Assembly: GCA_051362555.1 (NCBI GenBank)
Contig: CM120648.1
Span: 16,984,587 to 17,048,586 of the forward strand
DNA: 64,000 nucleotides
Origin: Lingula anatina
Taxonomy: Eukaryota > Animalia > Brachiopoda
Direction of reading: 5' to 3'
This document shows positions 10,918 through 64,000 of this stretch, piece after piece. Position numbers and translations under genes: made by a program. Numbering within the stretch: the stretch's first letter is position 1; each line of letters opens with the position of its first letter. The notes below the pieces were generated by a model. It did no database searches. It had not been told where the DNA came from and was given only the letters and a program-made list of their open reading frames with translations.

Positions 10918-11279
10918 AGGGATAACAACTCTTTGTATGCGATCTATATTTCACAATAAATACATTGTGAGCAACTCATAGAAATATACTAGTAATGTAT
11001 TTCATTTTACCACAAAAAAGGCAGTTGTAATAATTATTCTGAAATGTATGGTTTTCATCGAACCATGTGACCTCTACAGATGGCTATATATTGTAAGAAT
11101 CTCTAGAGAGATTATTACACAAAACTAAACGTTTGAGAAAACATAGAAAAAAAAACAGGGAATAACTTTGAATGTAGAAATGGATTCATTAACCATTGGT
11201 TAGTATGGGAAAATTGTTTACCCCAGGAAAATTCATTTTTGGCTGAAATGAACAGCACTGGAATGAACAGTTGTTGCTC
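10918..11279 (+). mobile_element. Kolobok-like MITE (TTAA-AGGGATAAC family)
   Basis: Starts ttaa|AGGGATAACAACTC and aligns by eye with 41746-42126 and 46560-46877. Right end decayed. Confidence 0.65.
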
Positions 11280-11294
11280 AGTATGTAAACCTGA

Positions 11295-13517: not shown

Positions 13518-13876
13518 CTAGTGAAATGCAGTGTCATCCACCCCCCCCCCCCCTCCCCTTCATCCCTCTCCCCCCTCCACTTCCTCGGTTGTAAGACATC
13601 CATAGTTATGTAAATTGCTGTGACAAAATATTGAGTCCATTGAATGTCAATACTATCCTCATTATTGAAGAGCATCAGGAGAATTGTGAGAGAAACCTTT
13701 TTCCAAGGCTACAGGCATCTATTTCCTCCTTTTATCCTCAGTAAAAATAAACCTGGCTGTTAAACTGAATCTGCAGACTAAACATGGTGTTGAAGTGTTG
13801 GTAAATATAAACATATAATAAAGAACATCTACTGCCATGGCTGGATTACTGCCTTTGTTCAGTAACTACACTGTAA

Positions 13877-17606: not shown

Positions 17607-18013
17607 TGAAGTGAACCCGAGTGGCTAAAGTCACTTATTCTTGTGATAACTACAGTCTAACTAGCAGTGATACACATAAAGGCGGCTGTCACGCCCTGAT
17701 CAGGGGCGTAGACCGCTTACCTTATATTCCACTTATAGGAATCCTGGTACGGTCTCACAACCGCTCCATGATCAATATCCACTATGGCACTATTGCTGAA
17801 TGTCAGCTATAGTGGTATAATTAAGTAGGTATGGTATTGGTCAAGGAATACTCGCAGATTGTGGATTTGACGCCCAAGGTGTGTTCTGTCCGGTGTCTCG
17901 TAGTCGAGTGTTAGTCAATTCATATCACGCGCTTCTTCAGCGTGTGTCGACACCTGGATGGCGCTTCTTCAAGACAGCCCACAACCTTAACATACTGGTT
18001 CACAATCACAACA
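17607..18013 (-). repeat. 3' LTR of non-autonomous element copy 1
   Basis: TGAAGTGAACCC...AATCACAACA, followed by the PPT complement TTCCCCCCCA. Confidence 0.93.
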
Positions 18014-19364
18014 TTCCCCCCCATTTTATAATAATTTTTTTTTTAAAAAAGGGACCATCCCAATTTTGCATATTTTCTAAAATGGGGAATATACACGTTT
18101 AAAAATTGAAGGACCAGCCTTGAAATGCTTGAACTTATAAAAATTTTAATTTAAAAGATTGTTATAAAAAGATTCCCCAAATTCCTTTTAAAACAATATC
18201 CCCGAATTCCTTTTAAAAACAATAGGACCAGCCTATTATATGTTTAAACAAATGGGACCAGCCCATTAATTTAAATGTTATAGTCTTTGGGGATATATAA
18301 TAAAATGGTCTCTGGTTTAACTCTGTATGTTTTTGGAGAGAGTCAATTTAACTACAATCTCCAAGCAGAGTATCAACCAGATTTCGGATCATCACCTTTG
18401 GCTGAATAAATGAAAATAAATGGCATTTTTTATTTATTCACCACAGTTATCTTGCATTTCTTACCAATTCTCAGTCAAGGGAACCTCTCCATGGGCATAC
18501 TGGACTAGATCCCCTGTATCAGGACTTATACCTAATTCATCCAATTCGGAGAATACCCAGATTTTGATTTATGCAAAGGAAAAGTGCAATTGTGCAATAA
18601 ACATATAAATAAAATATATATATTACATATACACAAATATATACATATATACATACATACATATATACATTTTTTTATGCAGGTATTCATCCAAATTGTA
18701 AATGAAACTGAGCAAAATTTGGAAAATGCTAACTTATTTTGGTGATTCTCCCTCTGAGGCATTGAACTGTTAAAACTACCAAATGAAGTATTCCTCACCA
18801 GAACTACCAGAATTCAGATGTTAGCAATCTTTTCTGATTGTAAGTCTATTCTCCCCAAACAGGTAGCATTTAGATTGGTGAGTAAACCTCACTATGTTCA
18901 GTAGTTCTTGGGGGTTAATACTGTACCAATTGCAGGTATGGCCAACTCTGATGGTTCAGCCAAAACCTTTTCAATATGACAATTGCACCCTCACAGTCCA
19001 AGTCTCAGATAAAAAGTTACTTCCCGGTCAAATGATGTGTATACAGAGGTTGAGAGATTTTATAAAAAAATAAGATAAGGGATTTCCTCCCCAAAAACAA
19101 AAAAAAAAAGAAATTTTTTATAGAAAGTTATTTTGCTACTTTTTCAATGATTTGGTTATTGATAAACTCCAGTTTTAATTCCAAACTGTTTTGAAGTCTG
19201 AATTTATTAAATATTTGATGTGCAATATATCTTTAATATGCACAAACACACAAATATAAATATAAATTTACAAATGAGGACCTATACATTTACTGCAAAA
19301 CTTGAACCTTGATACTGTACTGGAAGAAATAAATTTTATAAATAATTATTATTGTGTATTTTGT

Positions 19365-19800
19365 GTATCTCTCTAAAACCTCCTTCAGATCAGTGACATG
19401 ATAAGTGAAATAAGACTTTCCTTTGACCAGAATATCATCTAGGTATGCAAATTCTGTCTTCCATATGGAACCCCTCTGTAACAGACTTACAAATCTAGAG
19501 ATAGCGGGGTATTAGTGAGCCCTTAACCCCTTTTCTAGTCCTTATTTTGCCACAAAAGCAGTTATTAACTGGTTTCCTATTGACATCTTCTGTCTAAAAA
19601 CAGAATTGCCGTCAATTTTAGAAACTCAAGTTTTCCTGCTAATGTATTTAGGCAATCTTCCATAAGGGGAAGAGGAAATGTCATTCACCATCACATAATT
19701 AGGTAGTACACGATGATAATAACACCACCACGCACTACTGTCACATTTTCTGATCAAAAATAAAGCCGAATCCCAATCAGATGTTGACTTTTACTGCACC
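19365..19800 (-). pseudogene. Frameshifted reverse-transcriptase remnant inside the non-autonomous element
   Basis: Fragments read FPLPLMEDCLNTLAG and FAYLDDILVKGKS. Nucleotide blocks match pol at 63360-63800, e.g. CAATCTTCCATAAGGGGAAGAGG is identical at ~19653 and ~63663. Confidence 0.85.
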
Positions 19801-21689
19801 AACCTTTGAGCCCTTGCACTATTTTGTTGTTGTTATTATTTTTATTTAAATTATTGTGTGAATAAAATGGGCTACTTTTCAATTATTTTTTAAATTATTG
19901 TCTAATAAAATAGGCTGGTATGTGACACGAGTTGTTTTAATTGTGTCACTAAATATATATATAAAAAGTTTTGAGTTTTCAACATCCAATTGAGCCAACA
20001 TTATTTGAATCATATTGACCATTGGGAATGGGAATGAATCGGGTAATTTGGTATACACAATCCATGGGACAGACTCCCAAATACATGAGACTTATACCCA
20101 TATTTTTGGCGTGTAACCTTCACAATCGGGTAATATTAGCATCGTCAATTCCCCTGAGATAGAGTACATGTATACACACTAACACATACCCCAACAGGAA
20201 CAACTGGTTATGCTAGTTGGTATAAATCGGGTTGGATCAGAATAATTGAATCAGAGTCAGTCGCATTGATCAGATGCGAGAGAAGTCTCATCAAATATCT
20301 GAATCCTATCACATGGTTGTCACTGTTTGGGAATGGCCTGGCCAAATATGTGGGAAAGACAGTAGGATCTCTTTAGGTTATGTCACTGGTACATTTACCT
20401 TAATCTACTAACTGTTCTCCACTTAAGGTCTAGATGAGATGGTACATCAGGAAATTTAGCCCATATTTTAGGAGTAATGCTGCTATGCTTACATATACCC
20501 CTTAGGCCAAATAATTCCTTCCAAAGAGCACACATCTTTTGTAATGGCCAGTCTAAAATTTACAGAAACAGAACCTCTGAGACAGATCTCAAATAATTTT
20601 AAACTGAATTCTACCCCTTTAGGTTATACAATACTATGACCAAAAATTATTTATTTCCAAACTGGAAGTACTGTACATATGTGCATTTTCCTTATTTATT
20701 TTGGAGACAATTAACATGCCAGCTGGTGAAACTACAAAGCCAATGGTTTTTATTACAAAAACTACTTTTGACTTTTACATTATTTGGGTAGAAATTTTAT
20801 CAAATATCACCTTTAAACCAAACTGAAATCTAAATTACCCATATAAATTATTCCCTGTCTCAAAAATTGTCAAATGTAAAAATAGATGAAAACATCACAC
20901 TTGTGGCCAACCAGCTGTAGTGTGGTTAATTGTTTAGAAATCCATTTATTGATTCTATTATACGGATAGGGTTATAGAAAGAATTAATATATTTGTTCCT
21001 TGCTTGACTTGGGTAAAGTAAAAGTAACCAAAGCAAAGCAAAACAATGCCTGACAAATCACAGGCTAACTAAGAGCCTCCTTACTTGAAAAAATTATAAG
21101 AGATACAAAACAGGAAATTACAAATAAAGAGTTAGAGGACAAAGAAAAAGATACAGACTAAATACAAATTATGAAAGATTTTGGTCTAATAACAGCAGGA
21201 AAAGGAAAGGAAAAGAAAGAAGAAAAGAAAAAGAAAAGAAAAGGTGAAATTCAGAAAGGATGATGATAAGGAGAAGAATATTAATGATAATGACATGATT
21301 TTTTAACATGGCATGGAAAATAGATAAAGGCATGATTAACGAGATTCTGTTCAGGTTTTGCTCTGAGAGATGACTGCTCTTGTCTACGGTCTTTGTTCAG
21401 TGATGTTAACTCTCCCTTTTTATAAACTCACAGCACCTACAGCCAAGCCTAGACACACTCAGCCACTGCTACACAAGAGGATAGGTTGTCCCCATTTCCT
21501 CCCTCCACCAAATTCAAATGGACAAGCTGTATTATATTATTATTTCTCCCTTCCTTCTCTGACCAGCAGAGTTGTTAGAGAGATTTTAATTTTTAAGCTT
21601 TTGCCCACAAGAACCAGCAGAGTTCGGAACATTTGATAGGACAGCCCCCAACGAAGCATCCGATAGCTGATATAGCCAGTAAGGAACCC

Positions 21690-23657
21690 TCCGTTGGACC
21701 ACCATGAGACTAGCTTCATATGCCCAGCACCGGACCGAGGAACATCTGTGATTAAAAGATCATTGTTAACCATCATTACTTCCCAAAGACAATGCAAATT
21801 GGTTTTTATCTTACTGACCAACTACTATGAACAGGGTTTACAAGGATGCAGTTGCTTACCCTGGCCCCAGTCAGTTTAATTATTCCCAACGTTGCCTCTA
21901 GGGCTTGTTGGAAAAACTGACATTGTTCATAGCATCCTCTATTGATGTAAAGTGAGACAAACGTGCATATTTTCCCATCTCCCGATCCAAACACCCCCAA
22001 AAGAATTTTGTAATACATTCCTTTAAGGTGAATGATTCAGGTAGATCTAGGAACACGTCTGTGGCCAGAAAGAAAACCTACATGTAGCATGTCCACTCAT
22101 TTAAAGATTAGTTTGGGGATTTTTACTGCTTGATAGAACTTTGTATGTGAAATTTCTGGGAGATTTCCCCTTTGAAACAGTGTTAAGCTCACTGATCAAG
22201 GCAGTAAAAAGAATTGGAGCACAGTGATTTGGTGTATAAGTTAATGATGTTACATCTTGAGCTCCAATGTATATACTGGTAATCTTTGCACTAATTTTTC
22301 CATCCACCCATTTACCTCCCTGTAGCTTTGGAACACTCATCTTAAGTCTTCTCAGTCCTCCTCATTTTTAAAGGATTTTTAAGAAGATCTAAAGAACTTC
22401 CCCTTTTTTTATATATATATACATGGGGATGTGTAACCTCGGCTTGGAGAAAGGTGGAGGTTTTTCACTGACTTTGGAAAGCCCTGTATATTTTGAGAAC
22501 TTTCTTCATCCTTAGGCAAATAAGATGGTTTAATTTTTATTGCCCTTTCTGACTCAATAACGTTTAAGAGTAGGAAAAGTGGATGAGAATTCTCAACAGG
22601 ATTTTCTTCAGTCAGAGCTGCTGTACCCAATGGTTTTGAGAATCCACTAATAGTTGGATGGGGGACACTGGGCACATCACCTGGAGCAGGTTTATTCCCC
22701 CACCAGGTTCAGCACCCTGTGTATTAAATTGGTTTGGGTTTAAAGATTTTTAGAAATTTGTCCAAATATTGGGGGCTACCAGGCACCAGAATAAGCATGT
22801 TGGGATTAGTGCCTGATGTTTGAAAGGGATGGGTTGTAAAGTGGGGGTAAATTTTGGGTTGGATTTCTCAAGTTTGGTAGCAAATCATCAAGATCAGGGT
22901 TGGGAAACTGTCACCAAAAACCTGCTTGAATTAAGGGATTTGTTGATGTTAAATATCCTAAAGGGTAAATAAATTATGAATTTTAAAAGAAGGTAACAGC
23001 TGATGTTTTTTCCCTTCCCAAAATGTTCACTATTCCAATAACATTGGGCTGGGGGAAAGTGCAGAAATTAATTGGCAAAGACTACAGTATGTAATTTCAT
23101 CCATATCTTTCTCAAACTCCTGAATGTCCAGTAATGATATGCTGTTTTTAAATATATATTTTTGATTGAGTATTACACTTGTATTTGGGTGGCTTACTTT
23201 AAACTTTTACTTAAACTTTACACTAGAATTTTAATTTTGTTTTATAAACAAAAAAAATTTATAACTTTGTTATTTTGAGTTGTTCACTATACTTTAATAA
23301 TTGTTAAATTTCAGCTGTTTGTTCATTACTTATAACATCAGATAATGAGAAATCAATAGATGTGGGGAATTGCATTAGCTCTTTGTGGACAGGTTTAGGC
23401 ATCATAAATGGAAGAGGTTGGGGAGAAATAATGTATTTTGGGTTTTGCCCTCTTTAAAATATTGATAAAATTTCGAAGAATAAAAATAGGGCAACATTTT
23501 AGATTTAGTTTTGACCAAAATTTTTGTGCTCATCCAAGAAGATACCTTATTATTACTCCTGAAATCTAAAAGAGCTTCTGCATGCTTTTGACCTATACCA
23601 GGCACTCTAATTAGCTCATCATAGGTAGGTAAGATCTACCTTAGATCCCATTGACAT
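21690..23657 (-). pseudogene. Decayed gag remnant with N-terminal helix-hairpin-helix motif
   Basis: First ORF position after the PBS/leader. It reads MSMGSKVDL-(frameshift)-TYDELIRVPGIGQKHAEALLDFRS (ComEA/HhH_3-like). Downstream are fragments such as DREMGKYARLSHFTSIEDAM and a possible zinc-knuckle trace GHMK near 21715. Confidence 0.55.
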
Positions 23658-24454
23658 TGTTATAACTTGACAAGTCAAAGGTCACACTAACCCAGCATAT
23701 TTCTGTAAAAGAGGCACTTCCTGTCCCCAATTAGTGTGCGAGTTAATCAGAAGACCTGTCTTCTTGTGATCCGGAACTTTCAGATTCACTGAGAAGGTCA
23801 GGGGGAAAGTCAAAAATAGGGCTGAGGGGTATTTTGTAAAAGACAATGGAATGGGCAATGTGAATATATACTGCTGTCTGTTCTTGGGCTAAATGTAGCC
23901 GGAAATACAATAAATGAAGTCAAAGGTTCACTTTTGACCTTAAAACTAGGTAAAAATTGAAAATAAATGTAAACCCAAAAATACCTTCCCTCAAAAATTT
24001 ATTCAAATTTCCCCGAAAAACTTCACCCTAACCAAAGAAATAAGAAACTTTACCCTGAATAAATCTCCAAATATGGTAAATTCTAAGATAAATTTTATAA
24101 AAATAAACCCTTACCTTTAAAAAACAGATGCTAGCAGTATATATTAGGGGATCACTACCAATTAGTCTGGGGGGCCTCATGTTATCCCCAAGAATAAGTG
24201 AGATTACTTTATAATCAAATTTAGATGAAAGAATTTCCTTTTAATCTTTAAATTTAGTAACCAAAATCATTACTTTCATATACCACCAAATGGACGTACG
24301 TTGGACAATAAAAAGTATTGCCACCCCTGCACACGGATCGTGGAGTTAAATAAACTTTCACTCCCCCCACCTATCCAAAATTGGCGGCAGACAAAGGAAT
24401 TTAAAAATTTCTTACACCAAAAATTGATCAAAGAACAGGAAACGGGATCGGTTT

Positions 24455-24466
24455 TCCTTGTCGCCA
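24455..24466 (-). promoter_or_regulatory. Primer-binding site, probably tRNA-Ser(GCU)
   Basis: TGGCGACAAGGA, 2 nt inside the 5' LTR. It matches the complement of the usual eukaryotic tRNA-Ser(GCU) 3' end (TGGCGACGAGGA) at 11/12 positions (recalled, not searched). Confidence 0.65.
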
Positions 24467-24468
24467 AA

Positions 24469-24875
24469 TGAAGTGAACCCGAGTGGCTAAAGTCACTTAT
24501 TCTTGTGATAACTACAGTCTAACTAGCAGTGATACACATAAAGGCGGCTGTCACGCCCTGATCAGGGGCGTAGACCGCTTACCTTATATTCCACTTATAG
24601 GAATCCTGGTACGGTCTCACAACCGCTCCATGATCAATATCCACTATGGCACTATTGCTGAATGTCAGCTATAGTGGTATAATTAAGTAGGTATGGTATT
24701 GGTCAAGGAATACTCGCAGATTGTGGATTTGACGCCCAAGGTGTGTTCTGTCCGGTGTCTCGTAGTCGAGTGTTAGTCAATTCATATCACGCGCTTCTTC
24801 AGCGTGTGTCGACACCTGGATGGCGCTTCTTCAAGACAGCCCACAACCTTAACATACTGGTTCACAATCACAACA
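24469..24875 (-). repeat. 5' LTR of non-autonomous element copy 1
   Basis: Identical by eye to 17607-18013. Confidence 0.93.
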
Positions 24876-49488: not shown

Positions 49489-50948
49489 ATTTTATTAGAC
49501 AATAATTTAAAAAATAATTGAAAAGTAGCCCATTTTATTCACACAATAATTTAAATAAAAATAATAACAACAACAAAATAGTGCAAGGGCTCAAAGGTTG
49601 GTGCAGTAAAAGTCAACATCTGATTGGGATTCGGCTTTATTTTTGATCAGAAAATGTGACAGTAGTGCGTGGTGGTGTTATTATCATCGTGTACTACCTA
49701 ATTATGTGATGGTGAATGACATTTCCTCTTCCCCTTATGGAAGATTGCCTAAATACATTAGCAGGAAAACTTGAGTTTCTAAAATTGACGGCAATTCTGT
49801 TTTTAGACAGAAGATGTCAATAGGAAACCAGTTAATAACTGCTTTTGTGGCAAAATAAGGACTAGAAAAGGGGTTAAGGGCTCACTAATACCCCGCTATC
49901 TCTAGATTTGTAAGTCTGTTACAGAGGGGTTCCATATGGAAGACAGAATTTGCATACCTAGATGATATTCTGGTCAAAGGAAAGTCTTATTTCACTTATC
50001 ATGTCACTGATCTGAAGGAGGTTTTAGAGAGATACACAAAATACACAATAATAATTATTTATAAAATTTATTTCTTCCAGTACAGTATCAAGGTTCAAGT
50101 TTTGCAGTAAATGTATAGGTCCTCATTTGTAAATTTATATTTATATTTGTGTGTTTGTGCATATTAAAGATATATTGCACATCAAATATTTAATAAATTC
50201 AGACTTCAAAACAGTTTGGAATTAAAACTGGAGTTTATCAATAACCAAATCATTGAAAAAGTAGCAAAATAACTTTCTATAAAAAATTTCTTTTTTTTTT
50301 TGTTTTTGGGGAGGAAATCCCTTATCTTATTTTTTTATAAAATCTCTCAACCTCTGTATACACATCATTTGACCGGGAAGTAACTTTTTATCTGAGACTT
50401 GGACTGTGAGGGTGCAATTGTCATATTGAAAAGGTTTTGGCTGAACCATCAGAGTTGGCCATACCTGCAATTGGTACAGTATTAACCCCCAAGAACTACT
50501 GAACATAGTGAGGTTTACTCACCAATCTAAATGCTACCTGTTTGGGGAGAATAGACTTACAATCAGAAAAGATTGCTAACATCTGAATTCTGGTAGTTCT
50601 GGTGAGGAATACTTCATTTGGTAGTTTTAACAGTTCAATGCCTCAGAGGGAGAATCACCAAAATAAGTTAGCATTTTCCAAATTTTGCTCAGTTTCATTT
50701 ACAATTTGGATGAATACCTGCATAAAAAAATGTATATATGTATGTATGTATATATGTATATATTTGTGTATATGTAATATATATATTTTATTTATATGTT
50801 TATTGCACAATTGCACTTTTCCTTTGCATAAATCAAAATCTGGGTATTCTCCGAATTGGATGAATTAGGTATAAGTCCTGATACAGGGGATCTAGTCCAG
50901 TATGCCCATGGAGAGGTTCCCTTGACTGAGAATTGGTAAGAAATGCAA
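49489..50948 (+). repeat. 1460-bp inverted copy of the non-autonomous element interior
   Basis: Reverse complement of 51797-53256 (and of 18452-19911). The 88-aa ORF MRNTSF... appears on + at 50602 and on - at 52143 and 18798. Confidence 0.93.
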
Positions 50949-50951
50949 TCA

Positions 50952-53900
50952 TGGAGTGAACCCGAGTGGCTAAAGTCACTTATTCTTGTGATAACTACAG
51001 TCTAACTAGCAGTGATACACATAAAGGCGGCTGTCACGCCCTGATCAGGGGCGTAGACCGCTTACCTTATATTCCACTTATAGGAATCCTGGTACGGTCT
51101 CACAACCGCTCCATGATCAATATCCACTATGGCACTATTGCTGAATGTCAGCTATAGTGGTATAATTAAGTAGGTATGGTATTGGTCAAGGAATACTCGC
51201 AGATTGTGGATTTGACGCCCAAGGTGTGTTCTGTCCGGTGTCTCGTAGTCGAGTGTTAGTCAATTCATATCACGCGCTTCTTCAGCGTGTGTCGACACCT
51301 GGATGGCGCTTCTTCAAGACAGCCCACAACCTTAACATACTGGTTCACAATCACAACATTCCCCCCCATTTTATAATAATTTTTTTTTTAAAAAAGGGAC
51401 CATCCCAATTTTGCATATTTTCTAAAATGGGGAATATACACGTTTAAAAATTGAAGGACCAGCCTTGAAATGCTTGAACTTATAAAAATTTTAATTTAAA
51501 AGATTGTTATAAAAAGATTCCCCAAATTCCTTTTAAAACAATATCCCCGAATTCCTTTTAAAAACAATAGGACCAGCCTATTATATGTTTAAACAAATGG
51601 GACCAGCCCATTAATTTAAATGTTATAGTCTTTGGGGATATATAATAAAATGGTCTCTGGTTTAACTCTGTATGTTTTTGGAGAGAGTCAATTTAACTAC
51701 AATCTCCAAGCAGAGTATCAACCAGATTTCGGATCATCACCTTTGGCTGAATAAATGAAAATAAATGGCATTTTTTATTTATTCACCACAGTTATCTTGC
51801 ATTTCTTACCAATTCTCAGTCAAGGGAACCTCTCCATGGGCATACTGGACTAGATCCCCTGTATCAGGACTTATACCTAATTCATCCAATTCGGAGAATA
51901 CCCAGATTTTGATTTATGCAAAGGAAAAGTGCAATTGTGCAATAAACATATAAATAAAATATATATATTACATATACACAAATATATACATATATACATA
52001 CATACATATATACATTTTTTTATGCAGGTATTCATCCAAATTGTAAATGAAACTGAGCAAAATTTGGAAAATGCTAACTTATTTTGGTGATTCTCCCTCT
52101 GAGGCATTGAACTGTTAAAACTACCAAATGAAGTATTCCTCACCAGAACTACCAGAATTCAGATGTTAGCAATCTTTTCTGATTGTAAGTCTATTCTCCC
52201 CAAACAGGTAGCATTTAGATTGGTGAGTAAACCTCACTATGTTCAGTAGTTCTTGGGGGTTAATACTGTACCAATTGCAGGTATGGCCAACTCTGATGGT
52301 TCAGCCAAAACCTTTTCAATATGACAATTGCACCCTCACAGTCCAAGTCTCAGATAAAAAGTTACTTCCCGGTCAAATGATGTGTATACAGAGGTTGAGA
52401 GATTTTATAAAAAAATAAGATAAGGGATTTCCTCCCCAAAAACAAAAAAAAAAAGAAATTTTTTATAGAAAGTTATTTTGCTACTTTTTCAATGATTTGG
52501 TTATTGATAAACTCCAGTTTTAATTCCAAACTGTTTTGAAGTCTGAATTTATTAAATATTTGATGTGCAATATATCTTTAATATGCACAAACACACAAAT
52601 ATAAATATAAATTTACAAATGAGGACCTATACATTTACTGCAAAACTTGAACCTTGATACTGTACTGGAAGAAATAAATTTTATAAATAATTATTATTGT
52701 GTATTTTGTGTATCTCTCTAAAACCTCCTTCAGATCAGTGACATGATAAGTGAAATAAGACTTTCCTTTGACCAGAATATCATCTAGGTATGCAAATTCT
52801 GTCTTCCATATGGAACCCCTCTGTAACAGACTTACAAATCTAGAGATAGCGGGGTATTAGTGAGCCCTTAACCCCTTTTCTAGTCCTTATTTTGCCACAA
52901 AAGCAGTTATTAACTGGTTTCCTATTGACATCTTCTGTCTAAAAACAGAATTGCCGTCAATTTTAGAAACTCAAGTTTTCCTGCTAATGTATTTAGGCAA
53001 TCTTCCATAAGGGGAAGAGGAAATGTCATTCACCATCACATAATTAGGTAGTACACGATGATAATAACACCACCACGCACTACTGTCACATTTTCTGATC
53101 AAAAATAAAGCCGAATCCCAATCAGATGTTGACTTTTACTGCACCAACCTTTGAGCCCTTGCACTATTTTGTTGTTGTTATTATTTTTATTTAAATTATT
53201 GTGTGAATAAAATGGGCTACTTTTCAATTATTTTTTAAATTATTGTCTAATAAAATAGGCTGGTATGTGACACGAGTTGTTTTAATTGTGTCACTAAATA
53301 TATATATAAAAAGTTTTGAGTTTTCAACATCCAATTGAGCCAACATTATTTGAATCATATTGACCATTGGGAATGGGAATGAATCGGGTAATTTGGTATA
53401 CACAATCCATGGGACAGACTCCCAAATACATGAGACTTATACCCATATTTTTGGCGTGTAACCTTCACAATCGGGTAATATTAGCATCGTCAATTCCCCT
53501 GAGATAGAGTACATGTATACACACTAACACATACCCCAACAGGAACAACTGGTTATGCTAGTTGGTATAAATCGGGTTGGATCAGAATAATTGAATCAGA
53601 GTCAGTCGCATTGATCAGATGCGAGAGAAGTCTCATCAAATATCTGAATCCTATCACATGGTTGTCACTGTTTGGGAATGGCCTGGCCAAATATGTGGGA
53701 AAGACAGTAGGATCTCTTTAGGTTATGTCACTGGTACATTTACCTTAATCTACTAACTGTTCTCCACTTAAGGTCTAGATGAGATGGTACATCAGGAAAT
53801 TTAGCCCATATTTTAGGAGTAATGCTGCTATGCTTACATATACCCCTTAGGCCAAATAATTCCTTCCAAAGAGCACACATCTTTTGTAATGGCCAGTCTA

Positions 53901-56900
53901 AAATTTACAGAAACAGAACCTCTGAGACAGATCTCAAATAATTTTAAACTGAATTCTACCCCTTTAGGTTATACAATACTATGACCAAAAATTATTTATT
54001 TCCAAACTGGAAGTACTGTACATATGTGCATTTTCCTTATTTATTTTGGAGACAATTAACATGCCAGCTGGTGAAACTACAAAGCCAATGGTTTTTATTA
54101 CAAAAACTACTTTTGACTTTTACATTATTTGGGTAGAAATTTTATCAAATATCACCTTTAAACCAAACTGAAATCTAAATTACCCATATAAATTATTCCC
54201 TGTCTCAAAAATTGTCAAATGTAAAAATAGATGAAAACATCACACTTGTGGCCAACCAGCTGTAGTGTGGTTAATTGTTTAGAAATCCATTTATTGATTC
54301 TATTATACGGATAGGGTTATAGAAAGAATTAATATATTTGTTCCTTGCTTGACTTGGGTAAAGTAAAAGTAACCAAAGCAAAGCAAAACAATGCCTGACA
54401 AATCACAGGCTAACTAAGAGCCTCCTTACTTGAAAAAATTATAAGAGATACAAAACAGGAAATTACAAATAAAGAGTTAGAGGACAAAGAAAAAGATACA
54501 GACTAAATACAAATTATGAAAGATTTTGGTCTAATAACAGCAGGAAAAGGAAAGGAAAAGAAAGAAGAAAAGAAAAAGAAAAGAAAAGGTGAAATTCAGA
54601 AAGGATGATGATAAGGAGAAGAATATTAATGATAATGACATGATTTTTTAACATGGCATGGAAAATAGATAAAGGCATGATTAACGAGATTCTGTTCAGG
54701 TTTTGCTCTGAGAGATGACTGCTCTTGTCTACGGTCTTTGTTCAGTGATGTTAACTCTCCCTTTTTATAAACTCACAGCACCTACAGCCAAGCCTAGACA
54801 CACTCAGCCACTGCTACACAAGAGGATAGGTTGTCCCCATTTCCTCCCTCCACCAAATTCAAATGGACAAGCTGTATTATATTATTATTTCTCCCTTCCT
54901 TCTCTGACCAGCAGAGTTGTTAGAGAGATTTTAATTTTTAAGCTTTTGCCCACAAGAACCAGCAGAGTTCGGAACATTTGATAGGACAGCCCCCAACGAA
55001 GCATCCGATAGCTGATATAGCCAGTAAGGAACCCTCCGTTGGACCACCATGAGACTAGCTTCATATGCCCAGCACCGGACCGAGGAACATCTGTGATTAA
55101 AAGATCATTGTTAACCATCATTACTTCCCAAAGACAATGCAAATTGGTTTTTATCTTACTGACCAACTACTATGAACAGGGTTTACAAGGATGCAGTTGC
55201 TTACCCTGGCCCCAGTCAGTTTAATTATTCCCAACGTTGCCTCTAGGGCTTGTTGGAAAAACTGACATTGTTCATAGCATCCTCTATTGATGTAAAGTGA
55301 GACAAACGTGCATATTTTCCCATCTCCCGATCCAAACACCCCCAAAAGAATTTTGTAATACATTCCTTTAAGGTGAATGATTCAGGTAGATCTAGGAACA
55401 CGTCTGTGGCCAGAAAGAAAACCTACATGTAGCATGTCCACTCATTTAAAGATTAGTTTGGGGATTTTTACTGCTTGATAGAACTTTGTATGTGAAATTT
55501 CTGGGAGATTTCCCCTTTGAAACAGTGTTAAGCTCACTGATCAAGGCAGTAAAAAGAATTGGAGCACAGTGATTTGGTGTATAAGTTAATGATGTTACAT
55601 CTTGAGCTCCAATGTATATACTGGTAATCTTTGCACTAATTTTTCCATCCACCCATTTACCTCCCTGTAGCTTTGGAACACTCATCTTAAGTCTTCTCAG
55701 TCCTCCTCATTTTTAAAGGATTTTTAAGAAGATCTAAAGAACTTCCCCTTTTTTTATATATATATACATGGGGATGTGTAACCTCGGCTTGGAGAAAGGT
55801 GGAGGTTTTTCACTGACTTTGGAAAGCCCTGTATATTTTGAGAACTTTCTTCATCCTTAGGCAAATAAGATGGTTTAATTTTTATTGCCCTTTCTGACTC
55901 AATAACGTTTAAGAGTAGGAAAAGTGGATGAGAATTCTCAACAGGATTTTCTTCAGTCAGAGCTGCTGTACCCAATGGTTTTGAGAATCCACTAATAGTT
56001 GGATGGGGGACACTGGGCACATCACCTGGAGCAGGTTTATTCCCCCACCAGGTTCAGCACCCTGTGTATTAAATTGGTTTGGGTTTAAAGATTTTTAGAA
56101 ATTTGTCCAAATATTGGGGGCTACCAGGCACCAGAATAAGCATGTTGGGATTAGTGCCTGATGTTTGAAAGGGATGGGTTGTAAAGTGGGGGTAAATTTT
56201 GGGTTGGATTTCTCAAGTTTGGTAGCAAATCATCAAGATCAGGGTTGGGAAACTGTCACCAAAAACCTGCTTGAATTAAGGGATTTGTTGATGTTAAATA
56301 TCCTAAAGGGTAAATAAATTATGAATTTTAAAAGAAGGTAACAGCTGATGTTTTTTCCCTTCCCAAAATGTTCACTATTCCAATAACATTGGGCTGGGGG
56401 AAAGTGCAGAAATTAATTGGCAAAGACTACAGTATGTAATTTCATCCATATCTTTCTCAAACTCCTGAATGTCCAGTAATGATATGCTGTTTTTAAATAT
56501 ATATTTTTGATTGAGTATTACACTTGTATTTGGGTGGCTTACTTTAAACTTTTACTTAAACTTTACACTAGAATTTTAATTTTGTTTTATAAACAAAAAA
56601 AATTTATAACTTTGTTATTTTGAGTTGTTCACTATACTTTAATAATTGTTAAATTTCAGCTGTTTGTTCATTACTTATAACATCAGATAATGAGAAATCA
56701 ATAGATGTGGGGAATTGCATTAGCTCTTTGTGGACAGGTTTAGGCATCATAAATGGAAGAGGTTGGGGAGAAATAATGTATTTTGGGTTTTGCCCTCTTT
56801 AAAATATTGATAAAATTTCGAAGAATAAAAATAGGGCAACATTTTAGATTTAGTTTTGACCAAAATTTTTGTGCTCATCCAAGAAGATACCTTATTATTA

Positions 56901-57821
56901 CTCCTGAAATCTAAAAGAGCTTCAGCATGCTTTTGACCTATACCAGGCACTCTAATTAGCTCATCATAGGTAGGTAAGATCTACCTTAGATCCCATTGAC
57001 ATTGTTATAACTTGACAAGTCAAAGGTCACACTAACCCAGCATATTTCTGTAAAAGAGGCACTTCCTGTCCCCAATTAGTGTGCGAGTTAATCAGAAGAC
57101 CTGTCTTCTTGTGATCCGGAACTTTCAGATTCACTGAGAAGGTCAGGGGGAAAGTCAAAAATAGGGCTGAGGGGTATTTTGTAAAAGACAATGGAATGGG
57201 CAATGTGAATATATACTGCTGTCTGTTCTTGGGCTAAATGTAGCCGGAAATACAATAAATGAAGTCAAAGGTTCACTTTTGACCTTAAAACTAGGTAAAA
57301 ATTGAAAATAAATGTAAACCCAAAAATACCTTCCCTCAAAAATTTATTCAAATTTCCCCGAAAAACTTCACCCTAACCAAAGAAATAAGAAACTTTACCC
57401 TGAATAAATCTCCAAATATGGTAAATTCTAAGATAAATTTTATAAAAATAAACCCTTACCTTTAAAAAACAGATGCTAGCAGTATATATTAGGGGATCAC
57501 TACCAATTAGTCTGGGGGGCCTCATGTTATCCCCAAGAATAAGTGAGATTACTTTATAATCAAATTTAGATGAAAGAATTTCCTTTTAATCTTTAAATTT
57601 AGTAACCAAAATCATTACTTTCATATACCACCAAATGGACGTACGTTGGACAATAAAAAGTATTGCCACCCCTGCACACGGATCGTGGAGTTAAATAAAC
57701 TTTCACTCCCCCCACCTATCCAAAATTGGCGGCAGACAAAGGAATTTAAAAATTTCTTACACCAAAAATTGATCAAAGAACAGGAAACGGGATCGGTTTT
57801 CCTTGTCGCCAAATGAAGTGA
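50952..57821 (-). mobile_element. Non-autonomous LTR element copy 2 (one full LTR, interior, only 8 bp of the second LTR)
   Basis: Collinear with copy 1 at a constant offset of 33345 (all ORF-track entries duplicated). At least one substitution (23579 T vs 56924 A). It ends at TGAAGTGA 57814-57821. Confidence 0.93.
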
Positions 57822-57975
57822 TATCATGGAATATTTTTCCTTTGCATAAAAATTGCTTTACTTGTTAACTAAAATATGGGACAATTCTTCCCTTTTTGAT
57901 ATAAACAGTTTGTACAAACTATGTACATGAAAATAAATATATCTATAATAATGGTGCAATATTCTACATTAGTGC

Positions 57976-58150: not shown

Positions 58151-60706
58151 TTACTCATTTTGGTATAATTTAATACCATTTGTGACAGTAATGTCGAGTA
58201 TATGCCTAACCTCGACACCCCTAGCCTCTGCTATGATTTCCGCTGTCTCAAACAGCAAATATGGTGTAGAAGCCCTGATGTTTTGGGCATGAAAATATGG
58301 TGCGTCAGATTCCAAGAGTAGTTTACACTCCGGGACAGCTTTGACCGCCTCCAACTGGGATTTGTTGAAGGTATTCACCAGCCTGGTGAAGCCAAAGTAC
58401 GTGTTGTAATAAACACGCAACCACATCTCCATGAGCTGCTTGCTCCCTGTAAAACAGTGGAAATGGATGGGCTGATGCTCAGGGATGTTGTTCCTTTGAA
58501 GGATTGACAACAGATGCCTGATGGCATACACACAGTCACCACTACCCATCCCACGACAATGCAGCACTAACACCTTGCTGTCAACTACTGAGGGCAGTAA
58601 ATCATTAAGCAGATCTTCCTGATCCTGCCAGACATGGGAGGACTCTGAGAAATCGAGACCAACCTCTCCTATGGCTTGGACATGTGAATCTTTAACCAAC
58701 GTCCTGAAGTCTTTGAGATACTGTTCCCGCAAAGCAGGGGATTGGATGGCCTTTTTCGGATGAAATCCAATAGCTATGTGCATGTTCTCCGGCTTAGTTA
58801 GCAAGGCACTCCGAGTTGGATACCTCTCCGGATCACAATACACCGCTACCGAACCCACCAGATTGACCTCCTTACCCTCTGGCACAGGAACTTTCTCCCT
58901 CAGATTCTCCAGGGTTCCATTGGACGGCAGATTATAAGCTTGGAGAGTCCTGTCCAAGTGGAAATGGCTATCGAAAGCCTGGACTCCGACTCCCATCACT
59001 ACGTCTGCCACTGTTGTCCTCTGGATACCTGCAGGCACCTTGAAATTATTGAGCCATAAATCCCGTTGGACTGGATTCATGCATGAAGCTAGCTTCAGCA
59101 CAGCTCGCCAATGTACAAGTGCACCCACAGAGTTGGCTGGCTTTAGGGTTACTTGCTGGGGCAGAGTGACACCAAGCTCTTTACAGAAGGCTTGCATGGC
59201 TTGCCGTTGGGCTTCGCCAAACCCCCTGATCTTTTTGAGGCCAAATTTTTCGCCTGATGCAGATATAAAATCGCATAGGCTTTGTAAAGGTTTATTAATG
59301 CCAAAAATGAGCGATGTGGCGCACTCCAATGCTTTCACCCTAAGAGCCACGATTTCAGGGATGGTACCCAAACCCTCGTCAAAAATTTCAGGTATATGGG
59401 TCATAGCATGTACCTTGACTGCACCCCTTTCAATATTGGGGTCACTACATCCAGGGACCTGACATTTTGTCATTTTGGGTTCAACCTTAGCCACTTTTAG
59501 GCTAGGTTCCCCCACAGACTCAATCAGAGATTCTCGTTTCCGAGATTCCCCAGATGCAGCCACAGTCGCTGGCTTCTGCACAGACTGACCTGACTTGGAC
59601 GATTTTGCTGATTTGGGCTTTCTTTTCTTCTTTCTGCTTTTTCCGGATTGGGATTTCTCCCCCGTACTCGCAGATTCAGAAAAGGGATTGATGCTTTTTC
59701 CGGTTTGGGATACTTGCCCAACTGAATGGGCTTTCTCCCCCGTACTAGGCAAGGAAGGGAAGGAAAGGCTTTTTCCGGTTTGGGATACTTGCCCAACTGA
59801 ATGGGCTTTCTCCCCCGTACTAGGCAAGGAAGGGAAGGAGAGGCTCATTAAGGATGGAATTGGCCTTTTAATCTGTTTTCCGGTTTGGGATACTTGCCCA
59901 ACTGAATGAGCTTTCTCCCCCGTACTGGCAGGCTCTTGTTTTCCGGCTTGGGATACTTGCCCAACTGAATGGGCTTTCTCCCCCGTACTAACATAGACAG
60001 AAGCAGAAGATGGGGGTGGTAAATTCGCGGCAATACGCGCCAAGGCTGCCCTTCTACTACCCTCCATGGAATACACAAGGCTTGGGGACTTTTCCAAAGG
60101 AGACTCACGGGGTTTAGGGCTCCCTTTGGTAGCAGATCCATCTGAGGATCCAAGCAATTCCGAAGAATTGCCAGACTCCCCAGAATAGACCTCCCCCTCC
60201 AGGATGTCCACCTCCATGGCCTCTGCTGATGTTGAAGGAACTGGTGTGGAAGTCCCCCCTCCCCCAGACACCACAAAAGAGGTTTGGGTAATAGTGGGGT
60301 CAGTTCCCAACCTTATATCCCTGACTGGTCCCGAGAAAACACTTGGCTCCCCAATAGGTTTGGGTCGCACTGGTTTCCTGGATTTCCCAGTCTTAGGATT
60401 AGGTGGGAGTTTGGAGATATGTTTTTCCACCCAATTTCTATTGGAAATCCCCTTGGAGAGTACCTCAGACGCCAATTCGCGCAGCCATGAGTAATACTCA
60501 CCCTTCTTCTTAGCTTTGGCCATTTGGATTTTACACAAGTCCACTACATCTAATACTGACTGTTGGATTTTGTCAGTTTTACCGGGCAGAGCTTCTACAA
60601 GATTTTGGACAAAGTCCCCGGCTTGGATGGCTGGGAATACACGGAATTTCTTCCATATTTCCAATTCATCCAGAACTTTACTCTTGGACTGTTGCTGCTG
60701 GGCCAT
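58151..60706 (-). CDS. tatD: Retrotransposon ORF3: 851-aa protein with Ser/Gly-rich repeats, C2H2-like finger and C-terminal TatD metal-dependent nuclease domain
   Basis: TatD motifs in order: DSHFH, IGFHP, AIGEVGLD, VLHCR, HFHCFTG, YFGF, LLESDAPY. Uninterrupted ORF between pol and the 3' LTR. Confidence 0.9.
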   Translation of the reverse strand: MAQQQQSKSKVLDELEIWKKFRVFPAIQAGDFVQNLVEALPGKTDKIQQSVLDVVDLCKIQMAKAKKKGEYYSWLRELASEVLSKGISNRNWVEKHISKLPPNPKTGKSRKPVRPKPIGEPSVFSGPVRDIRLGTDPTITQTSFVVSGGGGTSTPVPSTSAEAMEVDILEGEVYSGESGNSSELLGSSDGSATKGSPKPRESPLEKSPSLVYSMEGSRRAALARIAANLPPPSSASVYVSTGEKAHSVGQVSQAGKQEPASTGEKAHSVGQVSQTGKQIKRPIPSLMSLSFPSLPSTGEKAHSVGQVSQTGKSLSFPSLPSTGEKAHSVGQVSQTGKSINPFSESASTGEKSQSGKSRKKKRKPKSAKSSKSGQSVQKPATVAASGESRKRESLIESVGEPSLKVAKVEPKMTKCQVPGCSDPNIERGAVKVHAMTHIPEIFDEGLGTIPEIVALRVKALECATSLIFGINKPLQSLCDFISASGEKFGLKKIRGFGEAQRQAMQAFCKELGVTLPQQVTLKPANSVGALVHWRAVLKLASCMNPVQRDLWLNNFKVPAGIQRTTVADVVMGVGVQAFDSHFHLDRTLQAYNLPSNGTLENLREKVPVPEGKEVNLVGSVAVYCDPERYPTRSALLTKPENMHIAIGFHPKKAIQSPALREQYLKDFRTLVKDSHVQAIGEVGLDFSESSHVWQDQEDLLNDLLPSVVDSKVLVLHCRGMGSGDCVYAIRHLLSILQRNNIPEHQPIHFHCFTGSKQLMEMWLRVYYNTYFGFTRLVNTFNKSQLEAVKAVPECKLLLESDAPYFHAQNIRASTPYLLFETAEIIAEARGVEVRHILDITVTNGIKLYQNE
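59652..59990 (-). repeat. Coding repeat STGEKAHSVGQVSQ(T/A)GK, four copies plus a partial fifth, within ORF3
   Basis: TTTCTCCCCCGTACT recurs five times, in frame. Confidence 0.9.
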
Positions 60707-60733
60707 CTGAAATGATAAATGAACACACAGATT

Positions 60734-63700
60734 TTAGGTTATATGTTGTTCAGTTTGTTTGCAACGAGGACATTTATATTTATCAATATCCAAGGCATCA
60801 GTCACTGTGATATTAACACAGGACCCATGATACCATTCATCGCAAAAATCACACTGAATCATGAACCGTCCACCATATGGTTCTCTACAAACACAATATA
60901 AAGTGGTGTCAGTAGTATCATTAAGAGTGTCAGTTTGAGATTTCCTTGCATTATGCGCCTTTATCCATGCTGGAATTCTCCTATCAGTGCAGGGTTTCAA
61001 CAGATCATGGTTTAAGACGACAAGGGCATTCTTTAACTTTACTCTATACAGATATGAGCTCAGCTTAGCCTCAATGATTCCAGGTCCTTTCCATGGTGAG
61101 TGTAGCTTGCGAGATTTGCCTTTAGGTGTTGATTTGTCTAATACATAGACAAGATCCCCTTCACCATAAAGTCGGAGTAAGATCTTAAGGTCATAATCCC
61201 GCTTCATTCTCCTTGATGTAGATTGGAGTCTCTCTCTGGCTGTTGTATGAGAATGTTGTATTCTTTGCACCAGGTCAGCCACAAATTCACCATAATCCTG
61301 GTGTTGCTTACTTGTTTCATGGGGAAACATCAGATGGGCTGGGATATTAACTTCCCTCCCTAACATGAGCATATTGGGCGTGTACCCTGTGCTCCGGTTA
61401 ATGGTTGATCTTATAGCCCCTGCTATTTGTTGGATGTATTTATCCCATTCATGTTGATCCTTGCGGATGAAACAACGAACAGCATCCATGATGGTACGGT
61501 TAAACCTCTCCACCTGGCCATTAGCGGAAGGTCTATAGGGTGTAGTTCGGGATTTGTGAATGCACAAAGCACGACACATAGCAGCAAACAATTTACTTTC
61601 AAAATTTCGCCCCTGGTCCGAGAATATATTAAGTGGATATCCAAATTTAGAGAAAAAATTATCGATTGCCGCTTTAGCTGTAACCTCAGCTGTTTGTGAA
61701 GGCAAAGGCACACACTCTACCCATTTGGTGAACTGATCAACCATAACAAGGCAATACTCATGTCCGTTTGATGTTTTTGGTAGAGGTCCCATGAAATCAA
61801 TATGGACCCTTTCCATTGGGGCTCCAGCTCTGTACTCAATTAGAGGTACTCTCCCATAAGCGTCCTTTTTCTTGTTTTGGTTACAAGAGTCGCAAGTGTT
61901 AATAAAGTTTTCTACATCTTTATTGAGATTGACCCAGTAAAATTTTTCTTTCAGGCGGAATTTGGTACGGGAGATTCCTTGATGACCAGAAGTGGGTATA
62001 TCATGGTGTAGGGATAAAATTTCATTTTTTAAACTAGCTGGAATTACTAGTTTCTGGTCATCTGCTTTGATGTTCTTTTTGTAAATAACGCCATGTGAAA
62101 GAATGAAAAATTCTTTGTTAAGCCAGTAACACTTTGCAACAGGACTGCTTGCGAAGAGTTCTCCCTTTTCAGGACTTTTACCTGTTAGCAACCATTGTCG
62201 GAGATGACCTAAATCAGGGTCTTTTTCTTGTTCTTCTTTTAAGGTATCAACAGAATAACCCCAACATTGTAATGATGAATTTTGACTGGAGTCTTGAATG
62301 GGGGCAATAGATGTTAATTTGACCTCCCCTGTTGAACTTAAAATTTGTATAGAAGGCCCATGAGTTTGGTTGTGGCATTCATCCCAGTTGCTAATAAGAT
62401 TGAGTACGAGCTGTGAAATACAGTCAATTTGGGGACTTTGTCTTTCTGGGAAATTCAGACTGTCACTACCATGTGAAGCATGACTCACCACATTTACGTC
62501 AGAAGCAAGGTTAATTGCGTCATCCACGTTTTCAAAGAATTCTCCCCAATTTTTGTGGGCACGTTCACAAAACTTGCAACCGCCACAAGGGAGATCTTTG
62601 GGTTTTAGGCCGGCAATATAATTAGAACAGGGAGCTAACCGATCTGGTTTTCTAGAAAGGGTGTCGGCATTAGTATGTTTTTTACCAGACCGGTGGGTAA
62701 TGATCATGTGGTATTGAGATAACTCCTCAATCCACCTGGCTAGCTGCCCCTGTGGATCTTTGAAACGCAATAACCAAGTCAGGCTGGAATGATCTGTTCT
62801 GACAGTAAACACTCTTCCCAAAAGATAGTATTTAAATTGGCGAGTAAACCTCACAATACTCAGTAGTTCTTTTCGGGTAGTGCAGTATTTTCTTTGCTCA
62901 GGGGTCAGGACATAGCTACCATAGGCAATAACTCTTTCCCGACCATTCTGGACTTGGATTAATTCTGCACCAATTGCAACATCTGAAGCATCAGTATCCA
63001 AAATGAATGGATCTGTATCATTAGGCAAAGCTAACACAGGTGGTTCAGCTAAAGCCCTTTTTAATGCAACAAATGCTCCCTCACAGTCTGAGTCCCAGAT
63101 AAAAGGTTTGTTCCCGGTCAGTTGATACAAAGGCTGAGAGATTTCTCCAAAATTTTTGATAAAAGTGCGATGATAATTTACTAAACCCATAAACCTTTCT
63201 ACTTCTTTTGAATTTTTGGGCTTTGGCCATGACTGGACTGTTTCTATATCTTTTAAATTCATTTTCAATTCACTGTTAGAGACCACCCTCCCTAGGAATT
63301 CTACTTCTTTCTGAAAAAATAAGCACTTTCTTGCCTTTAGCTTTATCCCGTATTTTCGAAATCTCTCTAAAGCCTCTGTCAGATTAGTGACGTGATCAGC
63401 AAAAGACTTTCCCATGACCAGAATGTCATCCAGGAATGCCAGAACTGTCTTCCAAGTGAGACCCCTCATTAACAGATTGACAACCCTGGAAAATGTTGCA
63501 GGGGCATTTGTGAGCCCAAACCCCATTTTACAATGTTCAAACAGGCCATATTTTGTCACGAAAGCAGTTTTCTTTTGGTCTTCTTTTTTGATTTTAACCT
63601 GCCAATAAGCAGAGTTGGCATCAATTTTGGAGAACCAATTATTTCCTGCCAAAGTATCGAGACAATCTTCCATAAGGGGAAGAGGGAATGTGTCTTTCAC

Positions 63701-64000
63701 TGTCACATTGTTTAGTGCACGATAATCGATACACCACCGTACACTACCGTCACGTTTTCTGATCAAAACAGGAGCTGACGCCCAATCAGATGTAGATTCT
63801 TGAATAACACCAGCCTTTAACATTTTATTTAGGTGTTCTTCTTCTTCATTAACAAAACAGGCTGGTGTGCGGCGCATGCGTTGTTTGATGGGCCTTGCAT
63901 CGCCTGTATCAATTTCATGTTCAATTTCTGTAAAATTGCCAAGATCATAATCATGCTTTGCAAAAACATCTTGGTATTCTTGTAAAATTTGAAATAAAAT
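60734..64000 (-). CDS. pol: Gypsy Pol polyprotein (RT, RNase H, integrase, C-terminal PHD finger), 5'-truncated by the window
   Basis: The frame stays open to 64000 (ILFQILQEYQDVFAKH...). RT: RWCIDYRALN, MGFGLTNAPATF, AFLDDIL. RH: LDTDAS, TDHSSL. IN: HHDIPTSGH...CDSC, HIDFMGP, SDQGRNF, NGQVERFNRT. PHD: YCVCREPY...CDFCDEWYHGSC...CPRC. Confidence 0.97.
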   Translation of the reverse strand: MLFQILQEYQDVFAKHDYDLGNFTEIEHEIDTGDARPIKQRMRRTPACFVNEEEEHLNKMLKAGVIQESTSDWASAPVLIRKRDGSVRWCIDYRALNNVTVKDTFPLPLMEDCLDTLAGNNWFSKIDANSAYWQVKIKKEDQKKTAFVTKYGLFEHCKMGFGLTNAPATFSRVVNLLMRGLTWKTVLAFLDDILVMGKSFADHVTNLTEALERFRKYGIKLKARKCLFFQKEVEFLGRVVSNSELKMNLKDIETVQSWPKPKNSKEVERFMGLVNYHRTFIKNFGEISQPLYQLTGNKPFIWDSDCEGAFVALKRALAEPPVLALPNDTDPFILDTDASDVAIGAELIQVQNGRERVIAYGSYVLTPEQRKYCTTRKELLSIVRFTRQFKYYLLGRVFTVRTDHSSLTWLLRFKDPQGQLARWIEELSQYHMIITHRSGKKHTNADTLSRKPDRLAPCSNYIAGLKPKDLPCGGCKFCERAHKNWGEFFENVDDAINLASDVNVVSHASHGSDSLNFPERQSPQIDCISQLVLNLISNWDECHNQTHGPSIQILSSTGEVKLTSIAPIQDSSQNSSLQCWGYSVDTLKEEQEKDPDLGHLRQWLLTGKSPEKGELFASSPVAKCYWLNKEFFILSHGVIYKKNIKADDQKLVIPASLKNEILSLHHDIPTSGHQGISRTKFRLKEKFYWVNLNKDVENFINTCDSCNQNKKKDAYGRVPLIEYRAGAPMERVHIDFMGPLPKTSNGHEYCLVMVDQFTKWVECVPLPSQTAEVTAKAAIDNFFSKFGYPLNIFSDQGRNFESKLFAAMCRALCIHKSRTTPYRPSANGQVERFNRTIMDAVRCFIRKDQHEWDKYIQQIAGAIRSTINRSTGYTPNMLMLGREVNIPAHLMFPHETSKQHQDYGEFVADLVQRIQHSHTTARERLQSTSRRMKRDYDLKILLRLYGEGDLVYVLDKSTPKGKSRKLHSPWKGPGIIEAKLSSYLYRVKLKNALVVLNHDLLKPCTDRRIPAWIKAHNARKSQTDTLNDTTDTTLYCVCREPYGGRFMIQCDFCDEWYHGSCVNITVTDALDIDKYKCPRCKQTEQHIT

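Follow-up and report, generated by a model that had tools for sequence, protein, structure and literature searches.

The site at which a retroelement inserts decides how much harm, or how much regulatory novelty, it brings to its host. Natural tethers are known that act through silent chromatin (chromodomains) or through host adaptor proteins, and targeting modules other than chromodomains also sit at the integrase tip. In the chromoviruses, of which MAGGY is an example, chromodomains guide the integrating element to heterochromatin (Gao 2008, cited by PMC6673714 and 10.1101/2021.11.30.470311). Here we describe a Ty3/Gypsy element of the brachiopod Lingula anatina in which the same place at the end of the integrase is occupied by a PHD finger, whose nearest solved relatives read histone H3 trimethylated at lysine 4 (H3K4me3) or the dimethylated form. 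The element lies on the minus strand at the end of a window of 64,000 nucleotides (assembly GCA_051362555.1, contig CM120648.1, positions 16,984,587 to 17,048,586 of the forward strand), and all coordinates given below are those of the window.

PHD fingers have been reported in several mobile elements, namely CR1, Chlamydomonas elements, Rehavkus, one Ginger1 family and the Penelope-like Chlamys (PMC6673714, PMC8557442, PMC2836005). A survey of 172 genomes reported that PHD and Chromo domains are frequently found together with reverse transcriptase (RT) and integrase domains, described PYGO-like PHDs in cnidarian retrotransposons and discussed tethering (10.1101/2021.11.30.470311). In these accounts, as here, the PHD is an accessory domain for which chromatin targeting is suggested, and both PHD-transposon fusions and the idea of chromatin tethering are already published in general terms (PMC6673714, PMC8557442, PMC2836005, 10.1101/2021.11.30.470311). 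The described elements differ from the present one in class or in the position of the finger: long interspersed elements (LINEs) have it in ORF1 or ORF2, Penelope-like elements inside the RT or endonuclease (EN), and Ginger behind Ulp1. They also differ in its type, which, in those passages that state it, is PYGO-like and not CFP1/PHF2-like. A second precedent is artificial. Fusion of the ING2 PHD finger to the integrase-binding domain (IBD) of LEDGF redirected HIV-1 integration toward transcription start sites (Ferris et al. 2010, via PMC8149907). That construct also tethers an H3K4me3-reading PHD to a retroviral-type integrase, but as described it is a two-protein HIV-1 tether, whereas the fusion described here is natural, covalent and old. 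Our literature search found no description of a CFP1/PHF2-type finger at a Gypsy integrase tip, nor of an integrase that itself carries a reader of the active-promoter mark; the supplementary tables of the survey (10.1101/2021.11.30.470311) may list the family.

Along Pol, the Pfam domains occur in the order RVT_1, RT_RNaseH, Integrase_H2C2, rve and PHD (Table 1), and the succession of RT, RNase H and integrase is that of Ty3/Gypsy elements (Metaviridae). The FLDD motif of the RT and the D, D and E residues of the integrase can be read in the translation. The finger, of 47 amino acids (aa), is the last domain of Pol, and the stop codon TAA at 60734-60736 follows 8 codons after its last Cys. 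According to the initial annotation of this DNA, Pol ends in a complete C4HC3 finger, and this was upheld: the frame is open through the finger, the match to Pfam PHD (PF00628) reaches 37.3 bits (E 2.9e-9) where the cut-off is 24, and the eight zinc ligands are all present (C1036, C1038, C1050, C1053, H1058, C1061, C1077 and C1080). The interval given there, 60761..60898, does hold the finger, but its upper end was 3 nt short and the strand was missing. The minus-strand translation of 60761-60901 is LYCVCREPYGGRFMIQCDFCDEWYHGSCVNITVTDALDIDKYKCPRC, an exact match to the 47 residues originally quoted; the plus-strand reading of 60761-60898 was also considered and gave nonsense.

The finger follows a GPY/F-like module that is kept in every relative of the integrase tail, with H8, D9 and C14 invariant in an alignment of 27 family tails (A1). 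This is the site of the chromodomain in chromoviruses, as the initial annotation had stated. A Pfam scan of Pol found no chromodomain (PF00385); the tail is the PHD finger, and the element is not a chromovirus by this measure. The two nonetheless have in common that they are Gypsy elements, with a pol of RT, RNase H and integrase and with a domain of a type that reads histone methyl-lysine fused after a GPY/F-like module, for which the proposed role is to tether the integration complex to marked nucleosomes. They differ in that a chromodomain stands there and a zinc-binding PHD finger here, accompanied by an additional open reading frame (ORF3) for a TatD nuclease. Chromoviruses read methylated H3K9 and their targeting has been shown, whereas the relatives of the present finger read H3K4me3 and its targeting is predicted.

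A phmmer search of all PDB sequences had PHD fingers only among its matches, led by PHF2 (6e-18), BPTF (8e-17), PHF8 (2e-16), CFP1 (3e-15) and DIDO1 (5e-14), with KDM7A and Drosophila PPS found too; the values for the first three place the match far beyond chance. With a profile made from A1, Drosophila Cfp1 and PHF2 tie at 3.4e-20, Cfp1 being aligned without a gap. Since no more than about 10 bits separate the scores, the host donor family (orthology) cannot be named. By phmmer, Foldseek and the family profile alike, the nearest solved relatives are all readers of K4me3 or K4me2. The fingers of CFP1/Spp1, PHF2/PHF8/KDM7A, BPTF and DIDO1/PPS share with this one the C4HC3 spacing, about 50% identity, the predicted fold, the Tyr/Met/Trp positions of the cage and an Asp after the third Cys. 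They are parts of cellular chromatin regulators, whereas the finger described here is the C-terminal domain of a retrotransposon Pol.

In PHF2 the cage for K4me3 consists of Tyr14, Met20 and Trp29, capped by Tyr7, with Arg2 of the histone resting on Glu22, and in BPTF it is D27 that holds H3 Arg2 (PMC8166343). The phmmer alignment sets Y1035, Y1042, M1047 and W1056 against Y7, Y14, M20 and W29 of PHF2, and because all of these residues are matched, the cage of the window copy is intact. W1056 stands two residues ahead of the His ligand, which is the position of the invariant cage Trp of the K4me3-reading subclass. By alignment, one of the two contacts in the Arg2 groove would be kept, D1051 matching BPTF D27; the position of PHF2 E22 is Q1049. 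An AlphaFold2 model built on A1 gave a predicted local distance difference test (pLDDT) of 90-94 for the finger and of 46-71 for the preceding tail and linker. The best Foldseek match to this predicted structure was the BPTF PHD bound to H3K4me3 (2f6j; E 1e-6, root-mean-square deviation 1.5 Å over 59 columns), and further matches were PHF2-H3K4me3 (3kqi), KDM7A, PHF8, DIDO-H3K4me3 and PPS-H3K4me3, with 4l7x and 5wle also listed. The predicted fold of the finger thus superposes on solved H3K4me3 complexes. Membership of the BPTF/PHF2/PHF8/DIDO/CFP1 group, first suggested on the strength of a residue pattern, has found support both in the sequence comparisons (phmmer and profile) and in the predicted fold (AlphaFold2 and Foldseek).

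A search with the integrase tail and finger returned 59 proteins, with a complete finger in 56. Of the remaining three, one is a model that breaks off within the finger, another ends ahead of it, and the third, at 30% identity, is a pol that lacks a PHD. The end of the finger lies 0-22 aa from the C-terminus in 55 of the 56. In a second search, with RT-RNase H, the presence of the finger followed the RT clade. In the 91 proteins from both searches that extend to the integrase tail motif, the finger is complete in 79. Among the remaining 12, most are truncated or damaged within or ahead of it, and three (P0407, P0418 and P0413) have a different tail. By these counts a PHD at the end of Pol is conserved across a whole clade. 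The eight zinc ligands and the Met and Trp of the cage are all invariant in A1, and across the 56 fingers Met and Trp are likewise found at their cage positions without exception. The cap Tyr is present in 53, with His in 2 and Phe in 1, and the position of BPTF D27 is Asp or Glu in 54.

The named records come from Lingula, Pinctada, Nucella, Gigantopelta, Elysia and Diadema, together with host contigs mislabelled as clam-symbiont bins. The same architecture occurs in metagenome loci with tail identities of 38-60%, which shows that the fusion is old. In the ESM Atlas, one cluster combines integrase and PHD and has Mollusca as its commonest phylum, which serves as a lead only. A profile search of 1.84 billion representatives gave 12148 matches at E<=0.001, mostly cellular multi-PHD proteins, and no usable family size. 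These comparisons show that the finger has been kept throughout an old clade of marine-invertebrate Gypsy elements and is not a one-off capture.

Two of the proteins with a different tail, P0407 and P0418, form a sister lineage of about 63% RT identity, in which the same integrase tail motif is followed by a long acidic tail and no PHD finger. This lineage is a natural PHD-less comparison group for a comparison of insertion sites. A clade member with a PHD-tipped pol, P0405, is also annotated with a TPT1/KptA RNA 2'-phosphotransferase domain (PF01885), which may be another captured accessory domain.

Given the cage and the relatives of the finger, it is probable that the finger binds H3K4me3. 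In the mechanism that we propose, the terminal PHD finger, joined to the integrase by a flexible linker, would bind the H3 tail trimethylated at lysine 4 and would thereby tether the integration complex to the nucleosomes of active, promoter-proximal chromatin. Binding would then bias where new copies insert, by the chromodomain logic of chromoviruses but aimed at active instead of silent chromatin. The redirection of HIV-1 by the ING2 PHD (PMC8149907) and the targeting by chromodomains (PMC6673714) make an inference of tethering reasonable. For the mechanism as a whole, with binding of H3K4me3 and a resulting bias of integration toward active promoters, we regard the chances as about even.

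Several points weigh against this mechanism. The Arg2 contact Glu22 of PHF2 is replaced by Gln here and in 43 of the 56 relatives. The second cage position (Y14 of PHF2) is Trp in 18 of the 56 fingers, Tyr in 13, Asp in 16, Cys in 6, Ala in 2 and Glu in 1, so that it is aromatic in 31, Asp in 16 and Cys, Ala or Glu in 9; the intact aromatic cage of the initial annotation therefore stands for the window copy and not for the clade as a whole. The PHF2 finger also binds the non-histone H3 mimic VRK1, whose methylated N-terminus occupies the same cage (PMC8166343), and the ligand thus need not be a histone. Insertion at promoters would be costly to the host, which argues for another use of the finger or for strong selection after insertion. 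Finally, the one copy seen here is nested among other transposons, its 3' long terminal repeat (LTR) is cut, and it is not visibly at a promoter.

The variation at the second cage position also accords with a role of the finger as a general chromatin or nucleosome tether, bound to the H3 tails of accessible chromatin, perhaps with K4me2, K4me1 or K4me0 in part of the clade, and without real promoter targeting. This we consider somewhat unlikely. PHD cages are described as made of aromatic residues, two to four in number, with affinities that range between high nanomolar and low micromolar (PMC3241642). Many relatives have an acidic linker before the first Cys of the finger, a feature reported for H3K4me0 readers; the same source describes those readers as having no cage, however (PMC3241642). 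The constancy of the cage Trp and Met and the near constancy of the cap Tyr also speak against a tether of this general kind, as does the fact that the nearest solved relatives all read K4me3 or K4me2. Asp is found at the second cage position in TAF3 (PMC3241642), and the family-profile alignment places Asp there in Cfp1 too. Since the second aromatic residue is replaced in part of the 56 relatives, part of the clade has a half-cage of the CFP1/TAF3 kind, compatible with the reading of K4me3 yet not a full cage.

Pol is followed by ORF3. Its N-terminal half is repeat-rich and basic, with STGEKAHSVGQVSQTGK repeated, its middle part is conserved and contains Cys and His, and its C-terminal part is a TatD nuclease domain. 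Pfam TatD_DNase (PF01026) matches there with E 8.7e-39 over profile positions 1-253 of 253, an HxH stands at the start of the domain, and the metal-binding motifs GEVGLD, HC.., HCFTG and ESDAPY align to those of YcfH and TATDN3 in the PDB; the domain belongs to the TatD family and looks intact. A TatD ORF follows the PHD-tipped pol on the same strand in 17 of the 18 related metagenome loci that have at least 2 kb after the finger (15 by tblastn and 2 more by Pfam), the 18th ending too early to judge, and ORF3 therefore belongs to the element. At loci such as L026 and L016, gag, pol-PHD and ORF3-TatD are found in a row, and the relatives carry a gag with PNMA-like capsid and CCHC, and an aspartic protease. 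No description of a TatD ORF3 in a retrotransposon was found in the literature search. The gag of L026 (235-1776) begins with a helix-hairpin-helix (HHH_3, E 6.6e-6), which is followed by the PNMA-like capsid and a CCHC knuckle.

Because pol and ORF3 share a frame here, and because the finger and TatD lie in a single open frame in L025, read-through of the stop codon from the PHD into ORF3 was considered. As a rule it was rejected, since the loci show every frame offset (0, 1 and 2). In 25 of 27 cases among related loci, 1-22 aa separate the finger from the pol stop. A pyrimidine tract and CAG stand directly ahead of the start of ORF3 in the window and in four of the seven other loci with a short spacer (L003, L006, L013 and L014). 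The tract looks like a conserved splice acceptor and suggests that ORF3 may be expressed from a spliced subgenomic message.

The joint occurrence of finger and TatD ORF, and their single frame in L025, are also points in favor of a different function, in which the finger would have a partner other than a histone or would serve another step: in nuclear import or retention of Pol, in control of the integrase, or in cooperation with the TatD protein. The binding of methylated VRK1 by the cage of PHF2 (PMC8166343) is a precedent for such a partner. A function of this kind is nevertheless unlikely. The integrase tip is the site of known targeting modules, among them chromodomains (PMC6673714), the pol and ORF3 frames differ among loci so that fusion is not the rule, and no partner was suggested by any analysis made here. 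An extension of the proposed H3K4me3 tether would make it half of a two-part system in an old and widespread clade of marine-invertebrate Gypsy elements. A PHD integrase would be docked on H3K4me3 nucleosomes, and a self-encoded TatD, made from a spliced message, would process nucleic-acid ends or RNA-DNA hybrids at transcribed targets. We hold such a system to be improbable; if real, it would be the first natural retroelement lineage to read the active-promoter mark directly, a mirror image of the chromoviruses.

Evidence from RNA comes from three raw-read runs with the same species label (X14, X11 and X17), aligned to the window. The stranded run X14 contributed 125 reads, of which 112 are at least 99% alike; they span pol, the finger (at a depth of 3.1) and ORF3. 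Their first mates are all on the plus strand, which in most stranded libraries corresponds to the sense direction. The polyA run X11 covers mainly ORF3. Run X17 gave only reads 95-99% alike, from diverged copies, and one of their differences inside the finger (60779) is synonymous by codon reading. The element is transcribed. No splice joints were reported in the RNA reads at the low depth obtained. Seven X17 reads with loose ends at 60696 were considered as a splice and rejected, as they come from a diverged paralogue.

The 5' part of the element lies beyond the end of the window. At the other end, an A-rich stretch separates ORF3 from the putative polypurine tract, and the 3' LTR, which starts with TG at 57883-57882, is cut at 57822, at the start of another element. 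A search of 30 related loci for LTR pairs found none, the contigs being too short. Self-comparison places at 57821/57822 the switch into another Gypsy-like element, B2, which adjoins the PHD element and of whose 5' LTR only 8 nt are left. In its twin B1 the LTRs, of 407 bp, are 100% identical, and there is a primer-binding site of the form TGG... The two elements are 99.97% identical and contain gag-like and RT-like fragments with no open frame of at least 150 aa; a 1460-nt piece of the B element is also present in inverted orientation. The B element is either very young and apparently non-coding, or else an assembly duplication. Contigs from a DNA run depart from the window sequence to either side of 57821, from which it follows that other copies of both elements continue normally. 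The window copy sits in a young, rearranged transposon nest and, because its 3' end is cut against another transposon, its own target site cannot be read.

The rearranged surroundings might be taken to mean that the finger is a captured host exon, or a chimera of annotation or assembly, peculiar to the window copy and with no role in the element. This is extremely improbable. Integrase and finger share one open frame, RNA reads cross the finger, and the architecture recurs in the 56 of 59 relatives and in the metagenome loci at 38-60% identity; conservation of the finger across the clade contradicts a chance capture.

Table 1. Features of the PHD-tipped Gypsy element and of its surroundings in the window.
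Feature	Position	Strand	Remarks
Pol ORF (RT, RNase H, integrase, PHD)	60734..64000	minus	1088 aa; 5' side cut by window end
Reverse transcriptase	63290..63763	minus	aa 80-237; Pfam RVT_1, E 1.3e-31
RNase H	62711..63097	minus	aa 302-430; Pfam RT_RNaseH and RT_RNaseH_2
Integrase H2C2 and catalytic core	61529..62044	minus	aa 653-711 Integrase_H2C2, E 1.3e-19; aa 727-824 rve, E 5.5e-17
Integrase C-terminal GPY/F-like module (SPWKGPGII ... NHDLLKPC)	60989..61123	minus	read from sequence
Short helix and linker between integrase tail and PHD	60902..60988	minus	low confidence, pLDDT 53-71; linker acidic in most relatives
PHD finger, C4HC3	60761..60901	minus	aa 1034-1080; cage Y1035, Y1042, M1047, W1056
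Pol-ORF3 spacer	60707..60733	minus	27 nt; ends in pyrimidine-rich tract and CAG, splice-acceptor-like
ORF3	58151..60706	minus	851 aa; starts 27 nt after pol stop, same frame as pol here
TatD nuclease domain of ORF3	58160..58975	minus	aa 578-849
Putative polypurine tract (57885-57897) and first ~62 nt of 3' LTR	57822..57897	minus	assigned by eye
Element B2	50952..57821	minus	Gypsy-like
Inverted piece of B element	49489..50948		1460 nt
Element B1	17607..24875	minus	Gypsy-like, twin of B2
Satellite array	11150..13600 and 1582..3610		~31 copies of 72-bp unit (95-97% alike); ~13 of 146-bp unit (89-96%)

In the element next to the PHD element, the gag-like region opens, at about 56900-57000 on the minus strand, with the motif VPGIGQKHAEALLDF, which is similar to the helix-hairpin-helix of the L026 gag.

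If the finger does bind H3K4me3 and does bias insertion, the clade would be an example of integrases having drawn on both sides of the histone code. The mechanism would account for promoter-proximal insertions in molluscs, brachiopods and echinoderms, and would supply a compact natural module for steering integration. As the domain is an isolated one of 50 aa and young genomic copies are many, the idea is directly testable.

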